This document shows positions 9,421 to 15,111 of a stretch of DNA of 32,000 nt, piece by piece (position 1 is the first letter of the stretch; every line of letters begins with the position of its first letter). Position numbers and translations under genes: made by a program. Below the pieces are notes generated by a model. The model was not told the DNA's origin, did not search any database, and was given only the letters and a program-made list of their open reading frames with translations. Origin of the DNA: Synechocystis sp. PCC 6803 substr. PCC-P (GTDB taxonomy: Bacteria > Cyanobacteriota > Cyanobacteriia > Cyanobacteriales > Microcystaceae); NCBI RefSeq assembly GCF_000284455.1, contig NC_017039.1, positions 2,910,001 through 2,942,000 of the forward strand. Direction: 5' to 3'.

Positions 9421-10285
9421 GAGCGTGTTTGAAAAGTAGGGTGAAGAATGGAAAATGGTGAAAAGAATAAAATTTTCACCATAATTAATGATAATCCGAG
9501 AATTTTACAGCACGGACATCACTGATAGCCAGTGGCAATTGGTAGAACCTCATTTACCCAAAGCAAAAACTGGGGGAAGAAAACGGAAAACTAGTCTGAG
9601 GGAGATACTCAATGCTATTTTTTACATGCTCAGAACGGGGTGTGCCTGGCGACTTCTGCCCCATGATTTTCCTAAATGGCGAACGGTCTATGGTTATTTC
9701 CAGCAATGGCACGAAGATGGTACCTGGAAAAAATTAAACCGTATCTTCCGTGAGAAAGTTCGGCTCAAAGCTGGAAGAAATACTCACCCTAGTGCCGGTT
9801 GTTTAGATTCACAGTCACTTAAAAAGGCTGGAACTGGCCAAGAAACTGGCTATGACGGCGGAAAAAAGGTCAATGGTCGTAAACGTACAATCCTCGTGGA
9901 TACCATGGGATTACTTCTCGATGTTGTCGGTGCCCATCGCTCTGACCATCAGGGTCTGATTCTACTTGGCACCTGGTTTGCTCCCCTGTGGCAGTGCCTG
10001 CAAGTTATATGGACTGACAGCACCTTTGGCGGAAAGGATTTTATTTTCTGGGTGGAGCATACTTTTGGTTGGACCTTGAATGTGGTCAGCAAAAAGCAGG
10101 GACAAAAAGGCTTTGAAGTCCTACCCCGCCGTTGGGTAGTCGAGCGCACTTTTGCTTGGTTTGGTCGTTATCGTCGTTTAAGCAAAGATTATGAATATTT
10201 ACCTACCACCAGTGAGACAATGCTCTATGTTGCCATGGTTCATCTCATGCTTCAAAGGCTTGCTTAAAACTTTTCAAACACTTTC
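9421..10285 (+). mobile_element. Intact small IS5-family (IS427/IS1031-like) insertion sequence, 865 bp
   Basis: The left end is GAGCGTGTTTGAAAAGT (9421-9437). The reverse complement of the right end is GAAAGTGTTTGAAAAGT (10269-10285), matching 15 of 17 with a perfect 13-bp core. It is flanked by direct TTA at 9418-9420 and 10286-10288. It carries a single transposase ORF. Confidence 0.85.
9488..10267 (+). CDS. IS5-family DDE transposase
   Basis: The N-terminal region has the pattern typical of IS427/IS1031-group transposases: TDSQWQLVEPHLPKAKTGGRKRKTSLREILNAIFYMLRTGCAWRLLPHDFPKWRTVYGYFQQWHEDGTW. The C-terminal DDE region includes VERTFAWFGRYRRLSKDYE. Confidence 0.9.
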   Translation: MIIREFYSTDITDSQWQLVEPHLPKAKTGGRKRKTSLREILNAIFYMLRTGCAWRLLPHDFPKWRTVYGYFQQWHEDGTWKKLNRIFREKVRLKAGRNTHPSAGCLDSQSLKKAGTGQETGYDGGKKVNGRKRTILVDTMGLLLDVVGAHRSDHQGLILLGTWFAPLWQCLQVIWTDSTFGGKDFIFWVEHTFGWTLNVVSKKQGQKGFEVLPRRWVVERTFAWFGRYRRLSKDYEYLPTTSETMLYVAMVHLMLQRLA

Positions 10286-10734: not shown

Positions 10735-11187
10735 TCAAGGCATGGCCCCAGCACCAATTAAGAGGGAAACCCGATCACCGCCCACTTCCTTCAAGCTAGA
10801 GAGAATTTCAATGGCACTTTGATAGGGAACGTCCCCTGACACCCGCAGGTAAACGTAGCGCTGGGGGGACTGTTGCAAATAGTTAGGTAACTGCTGTAGA
10901 AGTTGAGCTTTTTCCACAGGGCGATCATTTACCGAGAGTTTTCCCCCTGGGTGTAACACCACTGGGAGAAATTGCGGCTCTTCCGGGTTTTCTAATGGCG
11001 CTTCGGCGGATTGGACCTCCGTAGTTTCAGCTTCCTGGGGTAAACGAACCAGCAAAGATGCTCCCTCTTCCGCTAGGTTGGCGGCAACGGCGACAAAAAA
11101 GGCCAACACGACCAGCATCACATTGAGCATGGGGGTAATTTCTAGTTCCGGCAATTTGTCCCGGTCTTGTCGGTGTCTAAATTTCAT
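10735..11187 (-). CDS. exbD: ExbD/TolR-family protein, paralogue 2, with Asn at the conserved transmembrane Asp position
   Basis: LEITPMLNVMLVVLAFFV aligns with E. coli ExbD INVTPFIDVMLVLLIIFMV. A periplasmic domain follows (YVYLRVSGDVPYQSAIEILSSLKEVG). ATGA start/stop overlap with the upstream exbD. Confidence 0.85.
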   Translation of the reverse strand: MKFRHRQDRDKLPELEITPMLNVMLVVLAFFVAVAANLAEEGASLLVRLPQEAETTEVQSAEAPLENPEEPQFLPVVLHPGGKLSVNDRPVEKAQLLQQLPNYLQQSPQRYVYLRVSGDVPYQSAIEILSSLKEVGGDRVSLLIGAGAMP

Positions 11188-11627
11188 AGCTCTGGGTCTG
11201 ATTTATGAACCACCAAAAGGACCCGATCGCCGCCTACTTCCACCATTTGGACTAATAAATCATCCACTTGACGATAGTTTAACTGTCCGTCCACCGTTAA
11301 CCTCACCTCACCCTGGGGATGGGTCGCTAAAAAGGTGGCGATCGCCGTTAATAATTTATCCCTTTCGACGATATTGCCTCCCAGCAAAACGTCACCCTGA
11401 CGATTTAAACCCACATCTAAACTAGGTGCCTTGACCTTTGTTTGGGGGGATGAATCCTCTTCTTTGGCAAAACCGCCTGCGCTCTCCGGTGGCTCTAGAT
11501 CGGCGATCACCCTACCAGTCAAAGACATGGTTAAAATTACAAAAAAGGTTAATACCGACATCAAGACATCAATCATCGGTACTAAATTAATCCCTGGAGT
11601 CCTTGCCCCCCTGACTCGGCTTTTCAT
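11184..11627 (-). CDS. exbD: ExbD/TolR-family protein, paralogue 1 (canonical transmembrane Asp)
   Basis: INLVPMIDVLMSVLTFFVI carries the conserved Asp. Periplasmic domain: VRLTVDGQLNYRQVDDLLVQMVEVG. It starts 3 nt after the exbB stop. Confidence 0.9.
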   Translation of the reverse strand: MKSRVRGARTPGINLVPMIDVLMSVLTFFVILTMSLTGRVIADLEPPESAGGFAKEEDSSPQTKVKAPSLDVGLNRQGDVLLGGNIVERDKLLTAIATFLATHPQGEVRLTVDGQLNYRQVDDLLVQMVEVGGDRVLLVVHKSDPEL

Positions 11628-11630
11628 CGG

Positions 11631-12341
11631 TTATGGCTCAGCAATTCTAGCCGCCATTAATAAATTGGGCATTGGCTGATGAGGTTCGTACCAGACCTCA
11701 CGGTAAATAAGTTCTAATTCACTGCCCACTGCGGCAAAATAATCCATTTGTTGGGACTGTAAACTGACCAAAACCCTAAATACTAACAGGGCAAAAATCG
11801 CCACCATCATCCCCGCTGCCGTGGTAATCAACGCTTCTCCAATGCCCGAGGCGGCCTGGGTAGCCTCCGCACTGGAGCCTCCTCCCCCGATATTGAGATT
11901 GTTAAAAGTGCGAATTAAGCCCGTTACGGTGCCTAACAAGCCCAAGAGAGGAGCTAGGGCAATGATAGTTTCCAGGAGTTTATCCCCCCGTCGCATTCGG
12001 GCAAATTCTTTATCGGCGGTGGCTTCCATGGCCAAACGGAAAGTTTCTGGACTAGGATGGCGTAGTTTAAGGGGAGCCAGCAGAAAACGACCAATGGCTA
12101 AATGTCGAGCATGTTCAGCAATTTCCCGAGCCTTTACCAAATCCTCAACCGCCGCATCGAGCACATCCCGCACAACCTGGTCTTCTTGAATCAGTAGGCG
12201 ACTCCAAAACCAACCTCGTTCGAAGGCAGTGGTAAGGGCAAGGATGGACAGCAGTAACAAAGGAAACATCACTACCCCTCCCTTAAGAAACTCATCGAGT
12301 AGCCGCGGAGTTTGAGTCAAAAACAGGGGGGATGGGGCCAT
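11631..12341 (-). CDS. exbB: ExbB/TolQ/MotA-family proton-channel protein
   Basis: Motifs APLLGLLGTVTGLIRTF and GEALITTAAGMMVAIFALLVF. The preferred start is the ATG at 12341 (MAPSPLF...). The longer ORF starts at a GTG at 12395, inside the AT-rich putative operator region. Confidence 0.9.
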   Translation of the reverse strand: MAPSPLFLTQTPRLLDEFLKGGVVMFPLLLLSILALTTAFERGWFWSRLLIQEDQVVRDVLDAAVEDLVKAREIAEHARHLAIGRFLLAPLKLRHPSPETFRLAMEATADKEFARMRRGDKLLETIIALAPLLGLLGTVTGLIRTFNNLNIGGGGSSAEATQAASGIGEALITTAAGMMVAIFALLVFRVLVSLQSQQMDYFAAVGSELELIYREVWYEPHQPMPNLLMAARIAEP

Positions 12342-12365
12342 GGACAGAAAACAGGGAAATTTTCT

Positions 12366-12442
12366 AAATAATAATCTCTTGCAATTATCCAGCACAAGTG
12401 CTTCAATAATTTATGGATTATTGCACTTTATTTGCAATAAAG
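12366..12442. promoter_or_regulatory. Cluster of AT-rich inverted repeats / Fur-box-like elements in the exbB-futA2 divergent intergenic region
   Basis: CAATAAT-ttatgg-ATTATTG lies at 12404-12423 and CTTTATT-tgc-AATAAAG at 12426-12442. The motif T[GC]CAAT[AT]A recurs four times on both strands. ATAATC/GATTAT hexamers, as in the Fur consensus GATAATGATAATCATTATC, are present. The cluster lies 25-100 nt upstream of the exbB ATG. Confidence 0.4.
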
Positions 12443-12606: not shown

Positions 12607-13647
12607 ATGACAACTAAGATTTCCCGGCGGACTTTTTTTGTGGGCGGCACCGCCCTCACTGCCCTAGTGGTAGCTAATTTGCCCCGGCGGGCCTCTGCCC
12701 AGTCCCGCACGATCAACCTCTATTCTTCACGGCATTACAACACCGATGATGCCCTCTACGATGCTTTTGGCGAGGTTAACCTCATTGAGGCCAGTGCCGA
12801 AGAACTGATTGAGCGTATCCAAAGTGAAGGGGCTAATAGTCCAGGGGATATTTTATTCACCGTAGATGCCGGTATGTTATGGCGGGCGGAACAGGCGGGA
12901 CTTTTCCAACCGGTGCGCAGCGGCAAGCTGAATGAGCGCATTCCCGAAAATTTGCGCCACCCTGATGGGCTATGGTATGGCTTCACCCAGAGAGCCCGGG
13001 TGTTGTATTACAGTCGCGACCGGGTCAATCCAGCGGATCTCTCCACCTACGAAGCCCTGGCGGATCCCCAATGGCGAGGAAAAATTCTGGTGCGCCCTTC
13101 CAGTAATGTATATAACCTTTCCCTAACTGCTTCCCGCATTGCCATCCATGGAGAGCCAGAAACCCGCCGCTGGTTACAAGGCTTGGTGGGTAACTTTGCC
13201 CGGCAACCGGAGGGTAATGACACGGCACAAATTCGTGCTATTGCCGCCGGCATCGGAGATGTGGCGATCGCCAATAGCTACTACTATATCCGCCTGCAAA
13301 AGTCCACCGATCCCGCCGATCAAGAAGTGGTGGAAAAAGTCAGCCTTTTCTTTCCAAACACTGGCTCCGGAGAGCGGGGAACCCATGTCAATGTCAGTGG
13401 GGCTGGGGTGCTGAAAAATGCCCCCAATCGAGACGCGGCGATCGCCTTCCTGGAATATCTAGCCAGTGATGACGCCCAACGTTATTTTGCTGAGGGCAAC
13501 AATGAGTATCCGGTAATTCCAGGGGTACCCATTGATCCTGTGCTAGCCGCCCATGGCCAACTAAAAGGAGACCCCCTCAATGTTTCTAACTTGGGACGTT
13601 ACCAACCCGATTCAGCTCGTTTAATGAATGAAGTTGGCTGGCAGTAA
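12607..13647 (+). CDS. futA2: Periplasmic ferric-iron-binding protein of the Fut ABC transporter (FutA2/IdiA-like), Tat signal
   Basis: 346 aa. Twin-arginine signal SRRTFFVGGTALTALVV...ASA. Iron-binding SBP fold motifs: INLYSSRHYNTDDALYDAF and ANSYYY. I recognise it as Synechocystis FutA2 from memory. Confidence 0.9.
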   Translation: MTTKISRRTFFVGGTALTALVVANLPRRASAQSRTINLYSSRHYNTDDALYDAFGEVNLIEASAEELIERIQSEGANSPGDILFTVDAGMLWRAEQAGLFQPVRSGKLNERIPENLRHPDGLWYGFTQRARVLYYSRDRVNPADLSTYEALADPQWRGKILVRPSSNVYNLSLTASRIAIHGEPETRRWLQGLVGNFARQPEGNDTAQIRAIAAGIGDVAIANSYYYIRLQKSTDPADQEVVEKVSLFFPNTGSGERGTHVNVSGAGVLKNAPNRDAAIAFLEYLASDDAQRYFAEGNNEYPVIPGVPIDPVLAAHGQLKGDPLNVSNLGRYQPDSARLMNEVGWQ

Positions 13648-13685
13648 TGCAAAAAAAATTGGACAATTGCCGGAGTTTGGCCTCT

Positions 13686-13710
13686 GATTATTGCATATAA
13701 ATTGCATATA
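13686..13710. promoter_or_regulatory. Tandem 11-bp direct repeat (ATTGCATATAA/ATTGCATATAG) preceded by GATTATTGCA
   Basis: ATTGCATATA occurs at 13690-13699 and again at 13701-13710. The 10-mer GATTATTGCA (13686-13695) is identical to 12416-12425 in the exbB/futA2 operator region. Confidence 0.3.
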
Positions 13711-13819
13711 GGGGTTAGAACACGATATGGTTTTGGCAGGATCAAACGCCGTTCTCAAACTTTCAGAGGTACGGTGTTTTTGTTGCCAGTCTTCTGTTTC
13801 TTCCCTTTTTTTGGATTCC

Positions 13820-14614
13820 ATGTGGCCCCTCTCCTGGCATCAGTTAAAATTTCCCCTAGCATTTATCTGTGCTTCTACAATCCATGGAGGGTTACTCTGG
13901 TTACCCTTGCCCCCCCCAGCAGCGGAGTTGGAGCCTCTCCCCCCCCCATCAAAGGATTCTGCTTCCGAGGCGATCGCCACAGTGCCCCTCGCCGACCTAG
14001 TGACACCGGCCCCCATGGCAGAACCTCCGCCAAAGAAATCCCCCCAAGTTTTAGCGCCTCTCCCTGGGTCTCAATCTGTTCGTGAAGTAGTGCCTGATGT
14101 TATAGCGCCACCACCATCTCCTCCCCAAACCACTCCTCTACCGAAAGCCTCCCCTAAAGCAGTAAAGGCACCCCAGGGCGAACCGAATCAAAGGCAGGAC
14201 AACGAAAAAATTGAGCCTGAATCGGTTCCAGAATCCCGCTCTGACCAAGGGCAGGAGGTTGAGAATGAGATTAAAAGTATTGAACCCTCCTCCTTCCCTC
14301 AGCCTAAGAGGGAACTCATCGCTGGCATTGCCCACTTAGAAGGAGCTCAATCAGGATGCTACGGCTCAGAGGATTGTCATTTTCTGGCAGGGGCCACGGT
14401 GCGGGACGTCACCCAAGACCTCCAAGCCCGTTTGGAGGCACAAGGCTTCCGTCTGAGTGAGAGTTATCGAGATACGGGATTGCGGGTATATGAGGTTTAT
14501 CGGCAAGACAAACTACCCCAATTTCTCCACATCGTCAGTGATAATGCGGGACGGGATGCGTTTTATCTTCTCTCCCCCCAACAAAAAACCTTAGAGGAAC
14601 TTAGATCGCAATGA
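13820..14614 (+). CDS. Membrane-anchored Pro-rich protein with TonB-like N-terminus and an unrecognised C-terminal domain
   Basis: The ATG at 13820 gives MWPLSWHQLKFPLAFICASTIHGGLLWLPLPPP. This is a single transmembrane helix with an IHG motif, followed by ~130 aa rich in Pro/Lys/Glu and a ~100-aa C-terminal globular region. An alternative ATG at 13727 would add a T-rich, Cys-rich leader that looks non-coding. Confidence 0.65.
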   Translation: MWPLSWHQLKFPLAFICASTIHGGLLWLPLPPPAAELEPLPPPSKDSASEAIATVPLADLVTPAPMAEPPPKKSPQVLAPLPGSQSVREVVPDVIAPPPSPPQTTPLPKASPKAVKAPQGEPNQRQDNEKIEPESVPESRSDQGQEVENEIKSIEPSSFPQPKRELIAGIAHLEGAQSGCYGSEDCHFLAGATVRDVTQDLQARLEAQGFRLSESYRDTGLRVYEVYRQDKLPQFLHIVSDNAGRDAFYLLSPQQKTLEELRSQ

Positions 14615-15111
14615 ATAACAAAAAACTCAGCCTAACCCTGCCATTGGTAGGAATCCTAGCTCTGACGGCTTGTAATCAGCCCAAGGAAGAAATTGATCCC
14701 CTATCCCAGTTGCGGGAGAAAGGGGAATGTCTTGATTGCAATCTAGCGGGGGCAGACCTGCGGGAGTTTAATTTGGAAAATGCCCGCTTGAACCGTTCTG
14801 ATTTATCGGGGGCAAATTTATCGGGGGTGAATTTACGGCGGGCGTTGTTGGACCGGGCCAACTTGACAGGGGCAAATCTGAGTGAAACGGATTTAACCGA
14901 AGCGGCCTTAACTGAAGCCAATCTGGCCGGGGCGGATTTGAGCGGCGCTAATTTGGAACGGAGTTTTCTGCGGGATGTGGATTTAACTGGAGCTAATCTG
15001 AAAGGAGCCAACCTAGCCTGGGCCAATTTAACGGCGGCCAACTTAACCGATGTCGATTTGGAGGAGGCGGAATTTTGGGAAACAACCATGCCCGATGGTT
15101 CTCGTCGTTAA
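14611..15111 (+). CDS. Pentapeptide-repeat lipoprotein
   Basis: Signal peptide with lipobox LTAC. About 20 consecutive A(D/N)LxG-type pentapeptides follow (CNLAGADLREFNLENARLNRSDLSGANLSGVNL...). ATGA overlap with the upstream gene. Confidence 0.85.
   Translation: MNNKKLSLTLPLVGILALTACNQPKEEIDPLSQLREKGECLDCNLAGADLREFNLENARLNRSDLSGANLSGVNLRRALLDRANLTGANLSETDLTEAALTEANLAGADLSGANLERSFLRDVDLTGANLKGANLAWANLTAANLTDVDLEEAEFWETTMPDGSRR

Follow-up and report, generated by a model that had tools for sequence, protein, structure and literature searches.

Transducers of the TonB and TolA class and a new family linked to futA2

In TonB and TolA, a signature in the membrane anchor engages the ExbB-ExbD or TolQ-TolR proton motor. 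This study concerns a gene of 264 codons that follows futA2, a gene for ferric-iron uptake, in a 32,000-nt stretch of Synechocystis sp. PCC 6803 substr. PCC-P (contig NC_017039.1, positions 2,910,001 to 2,942,000; hereafter the window). The N-terminus of its product is TonB/TolA-like. The protein does not belong to the TonB family as defined by Pfam and TIGRFAM, because TonB_C was tested for and is absent, and it is not a TolA, because domain II and domain III are both lacking. It belongs to a new family, the Fut-associated TonB-like proteins, which is defined here. We give about an even chance to the reading that it is a Fut-dedicated transducer of the TonB/TolA class, driven by the adjoining ExbB-ExbD-ExbD.

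With TonB of Escherichia coli and of Synechocystis itself (Slr1484), the family shares a short cytoplasmic N-terminus, one anchor helix in which, in most members, Ser and His stand four residues apart, a hydrophobic segment of the I-x-V type about 25-35 residues past the His, a Pro-rich periplasmic spacer, exbB-exbD adjacency in several lineages and induction by iron starvation. It differs from TonB in lacking TonB_C, in a helix that is ended by a conserved P-x-P seven residues past the His, and in its conserved gene partners, which encode the FutABC ATP-binding cassette (ABC) importer and not TonB-dependent receptors; the window protein also differs in having Ala at position -4 and Ser at -3 relative to the His. 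The likeness to TolA of the Tol-Pal system lies in the anchor class, with S18/H22 in register, and in a three-domain, periplasm-spanning design linked to a motor of the MotA/ExbB family, whereas the helical domain II, TolA domain III and tolB/pal neighbours are missing from the family and the context is one of iron uptake.

Similar rearrangements of the TonB plan have been described in Anabaena SjdR/TonB1 and myxobacterial GltJ/AgmX, in which a TonB-like anchor precedes a periplasmic region rich in Pro, Ser and Thr and the C-terminal module is truncated or replaced (PMC8262864). The family shares with these proteins the anchor, the Pro-rich region and the altered C-terminal module, but ends in a conserved C-terminal domain of its own and lies in a fut context; SjdR differs further in a cytoplasmic N-terminal extension of about 65 amino acids (aa), in its septal role and in not being iron-induced. 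Matches of family members to the NCBIfam models GltJ, TolA and TonB are weak and far under the cut-offs, and are taken as hints only; the GltJ model was weakly matched by four members, and the matches inspected cover the anchor plus spacer or the spacer only. E. coli TonB binds FhuD and BtuF, two periplasmic binding proteins of ABC importers, and so offers a precedent for the contact that the futA2 linkage suggests here. For the canonical TonB of E. coli this is a side activity, whereas for a dedicated, paralogue-like family that ends in another C-terminal domain it would, if so, be the principal function.

Architecture of the protein

The open reading frame is present in the window as originally predicted, and its product can be divided into an anchor, a spacer and a globular domain:

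13820-14614, forward strand: coding sequence of the 264-aa protein, stop codon included; probably slr0514
13850-13903, forward strand: signal-anchor helix, residues 11-28 FPLAFICASTIHGGLLWL, then P-L-P; the sole hydrophobic segment
13904-14308, forward strand: Pro-rich variable spacer, residues 29-163; 135 aa, predicted disordered
13970-13990, forward strand: post-anchor motif AIATVPL, residues 51-57; the window version of [IV]-x-[VLI]-[TV]-x-L-P
14309-14611, forward strand: C-terminal globular domain, residues 164-264; hairpin, helix, four strands and helix in the AlphaFold2 model

His22 is encoded by the codon cat at 13883-13885, with Ser19 at -3 and Ala18 at -4; the original prediction had placed the His codon there and had noted that the Ser precedes it by three residues and not four, and both details hold in the window. 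Alignment of 93 family members on the membrane His yielded the anchor motif [S/A]-x3-H-G-x2-L-x-L-P-x-P. The His is invariant (93/93), and position -4 is occupied by Ser in 71 members and by Ala in 22, with nothing else; the other positions are Gly at +1 (54/93), Leu at +4 (78/93), and Pro at +7 (88/93) and +9 (63/93). The exact SxxxH is the majority state of the family, and Synechocystis belongs to the Ala minority.

The anchor profile was compared by hhalign with E. coli TonB and TolA, both taken from the annotated K-12 genome. The best local alignment in the 239-aa TonB fell on residues 12-24, with S16/H20 in register (score 20.2, P=5.5e-4), and that in the 421-aa TolA on residues 14-27, with S18/H22 in register (score 17.3). 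A longer anchor profile scored 21.6 against TonB and 21.1 against TolA, and across profiles the P value for TonB ranged from 5.5e-4 to 1.8e-3. As decoys served 170 proteins of at least 200 aa from the fetched loci, multi-pass permeases such as FutB included; none of them reached the score of TonB or TolA, the best decoy scoring 16.3 against the shorter profile and 17.0 against the longer. The description of the anchor as TonB-like is borne out by this alignment, which is in register with both the TonB and the TolA anchor and above all decoys. The likeness would best be described as a motif-level match to the TonB/TolA anchor class, which is not a proof of homology.

A second conserved motif, with the core I-x-V-x-x-L-P, starts about 25-45 residues past the His. 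Its columns are I/V in 80, V/L/I in 81, L in 72 and P in 76 of the 93 members, and the corresponding regular expression was matched by 56 of them, against 6.5 expected after shuffling. By eye the motif resembles P-I-S-V-T-M-V-T-P of E. coli TonB (residues 44-52) and S-I-D-A-V-M-V of TolA. The surrounding spacer of the window protein consists of 24% Pro, 10% Glu, 10% Ser, 10% Ala and 7% Lys and is predicted by AlphaFold2 to be disordered (predicted local distance difference test, pLDDT, below 50). A spacer of about 130 residues rich in Pro, Lys and Glu had been described; the length and the richness in Pro agree with this, while Lys is less abundant than in E. coli TonB. In 74 members the spacer has a median length of 122 aa (range 92-160) and a median Pro content of 25%, so that length and composition are retained and the sequence itself is variable.

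The C-terminal domain was modelled confidently by AlphaFold2 with a 77-sequence alignment (pLDDT 83, predicted TM-score 0.76). Its beta-hairpin bears Cys180 (14357-14359) and Cys186 (14375-14377), which are nearly invariant in the family (110/113 and 113/113) and lie within the motif (F-P-H)-x2-G-A-x2-G-C-x-G-x3-C, of which the window protein has a variant with IAH for FPH. The two residues probably form a periplasmic disulfide, and the near-invariance of the pair fits an oxidising periplasm. In the window protein neither TonB_C nor TonB_2 was matched at E≤1, in agreement with the original observation that the last ~100 residues lack the TonB C-terminal pattern, and no Pfam or NCBIfam model names the protein.

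Searches with the whole protein, the C-terminal profile and the anchor profile against PDB sequences returned only chance or irrelevant matches, to designed proteins and light-harvesting helices. Foldseek searches of two models against the PDB gave none at E≤0.001 or with a TM-score >0.5; even the best of the matches, to the BamC C-terminal domain, Flpp3 and KA1, had E≥0.03 and a TM-score <0.5. PepSY_2 (PF13670) was weakly matched by 14 of 144 members at E≤0.01 (best E=4.5e-6), with scores of 13-22 bits in the ten members inspected, all under the gathering cut-off of 24.3 bits, and was not matched by the window protein at E≤1. Because of these 14 weak matches, the domain may be a distant PepSY-like fold with an extra hairpin. 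A helix on an antiparallel sheet is common to both, and the weak matches cover the helix and the first strands; the difference lies in the additional N-terminal Cys-x5-Cys hairpin of the family. The profile and structure searches that had been proposed for this domain revealed no well-known unrelated family, but only weak PepSY_2 matches in some relatives.

Extent of the family

The C-terminal profile of about 100 residues was searched against 1.84 billion representatives of 50%-identity clusters and matched 141 of them at E≤0.001, 14 of these at E≤1e-10; a word-indexed search with a broad C-terminal profile found 2 proteins. Most members are 240-290 aa long, with the domain at the C-terminus. 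A long form of 340-410 aa, which includes P0015, P0018, P0025, P0030 and P0035 and the proteins of loci L012, L021, L028 and L039, contains the C-terminal domain twice, the second copy being degenerate. The identification of these long two-domain members with IrpA of Synechococcus was considered and rejected, IrpA being described as imelysin-like.

Every member that bears a name is recorded as a "hypothetical protein" from a cyanobacterium. Among the sources are Leptolyngbya, Phormidesmis, Spirulina, Lusitaniella, Leptothermofonsia, Oculatellaceae and Coleofasciculaceae, to which a genome scan added other cyanobacteria, Thermosynechococcaceae among them, and wherever the source organism is recorded the family is so far confined to cyanobacteria. 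In the literature searched, the sole mention of slr0514 is as an unknown iron-induced gene, and no curated model or paper was found that describes the family. The window protein carries all the defining features, namely the [S/A]xxxH anchor, the P-x-P, the second motif, the Pro-rich spacer, the Cys-motif domain and a fut neighbour.

Gene neighbourhoods across cyanobacteria

One genome of each GTDB species was scanned with a degenerate DNA pattern that encodes FPH..GA..GC[FY]G; of the 33 loci detected, 30 are cyanobacterial and encode the domain. The matches at L009, L018 and L023 are without the domain and not cyanobacterial, and were discarded as chance. The 30 motif-scan loci and two look-ups (L001 and L002) make up the 32 family-positive loci in L001-L035, which were searched with the window proteins; the stretch examined per motif-scan locus was 8 kb in most cases.

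Among 37 related loci in other genomes, a futA, futB or futC gene lies within a few kb of the family gene in 34. The genomic context of homologues had been proposed as a check on the link to Ton and Fut functions, and fut or exb neighbours proved to be the rule. Among the 32 family-positive loci, 28 contain futA or futB. A FutA2-like gene (55-65% identity) adjoins the family gene in 16 of the 32, in every orientation, with a weaker one at L028 (31%), and futA-like binding-protein genes also adjoin family genes in L039, L042 and L043. A FutB-like permease gene is near in 12 loci and lies directly downstream on the same strand in 10 of them, overlapping in places; the same order is seen in L040. 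Seven of the 37 loci came from look-ups made irrespective of the motif, and all seven have an adjoining fut gene. The loci without fut in the examined stretch include L007, where the family gene lies between dps and an idiC-like gene, and L003, where it is at the edge of the block.

Adjoining exbB-exbD genes are present in the window, in Synechocystis PCC 7339 (L036), which keeps the window arrangement exactly, in two loci of Thermosynechococcaceae (L012 and L028) and in Leptolyngbya FACHB-261 (L039), that is, in three lineages besides Synechocystis. At L039 futB, a pentapeptide lipoprotein gene, futA, the family gene, futC and exbB-exbD are found within 8 kb, and no TonB_C gene is listed within 10 kb on either side. 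Nor is a TonB_C gene listed in any of the stretches with Pfam annotation (L001, L002, L036 and L039-L043). All three loci outside Synechocystis with adjoining exbB-exbD carry the long form of the family gene.

Other recurrent neighbours, which we take from their sequences to be Fur (8 loci), Dps (7 loci), an IdiC-like 2Fe-2S protein (9 loci) and a Crp-type, IdiB-like regulator (6 loci), indicate that the family loci are iron-homeostasis islands. They echo the idiA-idiB-idiC-dpsA cluster of Synechococcus elongatus. An exception to the iron context was noted at L010 (7130-7999) and L021 (3522-4607), where a long-form gene stands divergently beside a pstS-pstC-pstA-pstB-like phosphate transporter operon and not beside fut genes.

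The Synechocystis locus and its expression

The neighbours of the gene in the window are as follows:

10735-11187, reverse strand: second exbD-like gene, with Asn replacing the membrane Asp (ExbD domain and alignment with E. coli TolR and other ExbD)
11184-11627, reverse strand: exbD-like gene with the conserved membrane Asp (ExbD domain and alignment)
11631-12395, reverse strand: exbB-like gene (sll0477), divergent from futA2 (MotA_ExbB, E=5.9e-32)
12607-13647, forward strand: futA2, periplasmic Fe(III)-binding protein, directly upstream of the 264-aa gene (SBP_bac_8/6/1 domains)
13648-13819, forward strand: spacer of 172 nt between futA2 and the 264-aa gene, with the direct repeat ATTGCATATA at 13690-13699 and 13701-13710
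14611-15111, forward strand: pentapeptide-repeat lipoprotein gene, about 166 aa (Pentapeptide domains; lipobox LTAC)

In PCC 6803, slr0513 is futA2 and sll0477-0479 are exbB, exbD3 and exbD4 (PMC8634477); because of this gene order and the locus-tag numbering, the window gene is probably slr0514. The identical protein is encoded on 223 public contigs, one of them a 3.57-Mb chromosome, and every named protein among the 11 close homologues found by a word-indexed search is from Synechocystis. The Synechocystis homologues all start MW.(P)SWHQLKF, with a Met equivalent to 13820. An upstream ATG at 13727, which would give a 295-aa version, was rejected as the start; the start at 13820 is preferred because the homologues begin there and the upstream codon reads ATT in Synechocystis PCC 7339.

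Two C homopolymers, at 13910-13917 (8 C) and 13949-13957 (9 C), encode PPP stretches just past the anchor. In the sequence P0002 one additional C in the second run leads to a 243-aa call with a frame-shifted N-terminus; phase variation was rejected as the explanation, since one contig stands against 223 intact ones, and an assembly error or private mutation is probable.

The FutA2 sequence has a weak, sub-threshold match to the twin-arginine (TAT) signal (E=0.036, 14.5 bits against a cut-off of 22.7). For the ExbB and ExbD of the window, the TolQ/TolR models give slightly higher scores than the ExbB/ExbD models, and every one of these scores is far under its cut-off. The second ExbD reads PMLNV, with Asn at the position of the Asp in the first ExbD, in E. 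coli TolR (D23) and in Leptolyngbya ExbD. The membrane Asp of ExbD is thought to carry the proton, and the substitution suggests that the two ExbD proteins form a mixed pair, of which one member would not be protonatable. Past the exbD genes, a 259-aa open reading frame (9488-10267, forward strand) resembles an insertion-sequence-type transposase, judged by its translation alone; it has no counterpart at the same position in PCC 7339.

The start of the pentapeptide gene overlaps the stop of the 264-aa gene (ATGA), and the two appear to be translationally coupled. Homologues of the lipoprotein (42-46% identity) recur in distant cyanobacteria beside family and fut genes, in L001, L006, L008, L015, L017 and L039, and the gene has the same position in L036; the lipoprotein looks like another unrecognised component of Fut neighbourhoods.

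No terminator-like site was found on the forward strand between futA2 and the 264-aa gene, consistent with the original reading of this junction. A 211-nt stretch covering the spacer (13630-13840) is 88% identical to that of PCC 7339, whereas the proteins are only 54% identical, which suggests a regulatory element of its own. A structured leader or an iron-regulated promoter/operator may lie in the spacer, for which the z-score of the RNA fold is only -2.0. On iron deprivation slr0514, listed as "unknown protein", is up by 1.4-1.8 log2 (PMC3516471), and the transcription units TU3083 (sll0477-0479) and TU3085 (futA2) both belong to the iron-stress regulon (PMC4195498). ExbB-ExbD are reported to be indispensable to Synechocystis for taking up inorganic iron (Jiang 2015, cited in PMC7676907).

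Function of the protein

As a transducer of the TonB/TolA class, the protein would be anchored in the plasma membrane and span the periplasm with the architecture of TonB and TolA. Its single N-in/C-out helix with the [S/A]xxxH signature would engage the proton motor ExbB-ExbD-ExbD (sll0477-0479), while the Pro-rich spacer of about 90-160 residues carries a new alpha/beta domain of about 100 residues in place of TonB_C. This domain would pass energy to the Fut ferric-iron pathway, or act as a scaffold for it, and the likely targets would be FutA2 or a partner in the outer membrane or at the level of peptidoglycan, not the TonB box of siderophore receptors. The coupling to ExbBD, the periplasmic topology, the disulfide and the identity of the partner are inferred. 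The reading is favoured by the anchor and post-anchor motifs, the Pro-rich spacer, the confidently modelled C-terminal domain with its Cys pair, the fut and exbB-exbD neighbours, the iron-stress induction of slr0514 and sll0477-0479, and the reported need for ExbB-ExbD in the uptake of inorganic iron. The wider claim, that such proteins constitute a third class of ExbB/ExbD-powered periplasm-spanning transducers besides TonB and TolA, dedicated to FutABC and acting on FutA2, a porin or a peptidoglycan-level partner, is put forward tentatively, with the chances slightly against it.

Several observations weigh against a motor-driven transducer. The universal linkage of the family is to fut and not to exb: ExbBD was not found within ±10 kb in L040, L041 and L043, and most 8-kb motif-scan blocks contain no exbB or exbD match. 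The anchor likeness comprises about 13 aligned residues, with hhalign probabilities of 7-30%, the window protein has Ala rather than Ser at -4, so that SxxxH is not literal, and among PDB sequences the anchor profile also weakly matches His-bearing helices of light-harvesting proteins. TonB_C (PF03544/TIGR01352) and TonB_2 are found in none of 144 family members at Pfam E≤0.01, the C-terminal profile shows no significant similarity to E. coli TonB and TolA in hhalign (P=0.34 and 0.13), and no TonB C-terminal or TolA structure is among the 50 listed Foldseek matches. The absence of TonB_C leaves TonB-box beta-strand pairing, and with it the canonical delivery of energy by TonB, unsupported. In addition, TU3085 lists slr0513 alone (PMC4195498), so that co-transcription with futA2 is not established.

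Some of these observations would be accommodated by a protein that works without ExbB-ExbD as an accessory subunit of the Fut importer, a possibility that we consider rather unlikely and yet the most serious of those set against the transducer. Its helix would dock on FutB or serve as a tether, and the spacer and C-terminal domain would capture or position FutA2 or bind iron, with no use of proton-motive energy. The strongest and most general linkage is indeed to futA, futB and futC, and the position directly upstream of futB in ten loci and L040, often with an overlap, suggests translational coupling and matched amounts; the three loci lacking ExbBD nearby and a C-terminal domain that shares nothing with TonB_C point the same way. 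Such a subunit leaves unexplained why a mid-membrane His is invariant, with Ser or Ala at -4, in an anchor that is TonB/TolA-like above all decoys. A Pro-rich spacer of about 90-160 residues also exceeds the reach needed for a permease in the same membrane, and exbB-exbD adjacency recurs in four lineages, with no canonical tonB where Pfam annotation is available. A redox or metal-binding component of reductive iron uptake is improbable. Here the membrane His would serve as a haem ligand in an oligomer, in the manner of cytochrome b559 or the PepSY_TM reductases, or the H-x7-C-x5-C-H stretch of the C-terminal domain would bind a metal, and the PepSY-like domain would act on FutA2-bound Fe(III). 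The weak PepSY_2 matches in 14 members, the pigment-binding, His-bearing helices that are the best PDB sequence matches of the anchor profile, the near-invariant Cys pair, the His of the FPH motif (84/113 members) and the idiC-like neighbours in 9 loci could be fitted to it. A single His in a single helix is little on which to base a haem site, however, and a fixed metal site is made less likely by the variable residue after the second Cys (Arg in 35, Trp in 30 and His in 29 members); the 50 listed Foldseek matches include no PepSY structure, and the Pro-rich spacer and the TonB/TolA-like anchor would be left without a role.

The likeness to the two classical transducers could also be taken at face value. 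A TolA-like protein of envelope integrity or division, present in iron islands by chance, is very improbable. The anchor matches TolA almost as well as TonB, two members give weak N-terminal matches to positions 2-66 or 2-74 of the tolA_full model (E=0.07 and 0.38), and the preference of the neighbouring ExbB/ExbD for the TolQ/TolR models, slight and sub-threshold as it is, would be in keeping with such a role. Against this stand an iron-uptake context in 35 of 37 loci (34 with fut, and L007) with no tolB or pal, a Pro-rich, disordered spacer unlike the long Ala/Lys/Glu helix of TolA domain II, a C-terminal domain without a match to TolA domain III, and the induction by iron deprivation (PMC3516471). 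Least probable of all is a canonical extra TonB that energises TonB-dependent receptors via a divergent domain binding the TonB box. It would account for the three-part architecture and the exbBD neighbourhood, but not for the lack of TonB_C in all 144 members, and the 50 listed Foldseek matches, not one of them at E≤0.001, include no structure of a TonB C-terminal domain. No TonB-dependent receptor gene is listed among the neighbours in the Pfam-annotated loci, the other loci being unscreened, and Synechocystis already possesses a TonB (slr1484) beside receptor genes (PMC8634477).

Implications for cyanobacterial iron uptake

As a protein of the TonB/TolA class, the one described here is new in both its output domain and its partner system. 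For many cyanobacteria the uptake of inorganic iron by FutABC is the principal way of acquiring the metal, and the need for ExbB-ExbD in this route is without a clear explanation, because FutA2 and FutBC are not TonB-dependent receptors. A conserved, iron-induced and unannotated family that has a motor-type anchor, is without the domain that binds the TonB box and is linked to fut is a concrete candidate for the missing link. The family also provides a new annotation marker for Fut loci. If the proposed Fut-dedicated transducer is real, it would offer a mechanism for the ExbB-ExbD requirement in the inorganic iron uptake of Synechocystis, and would add a third output module to those of the ExbB/TolQ motor family.

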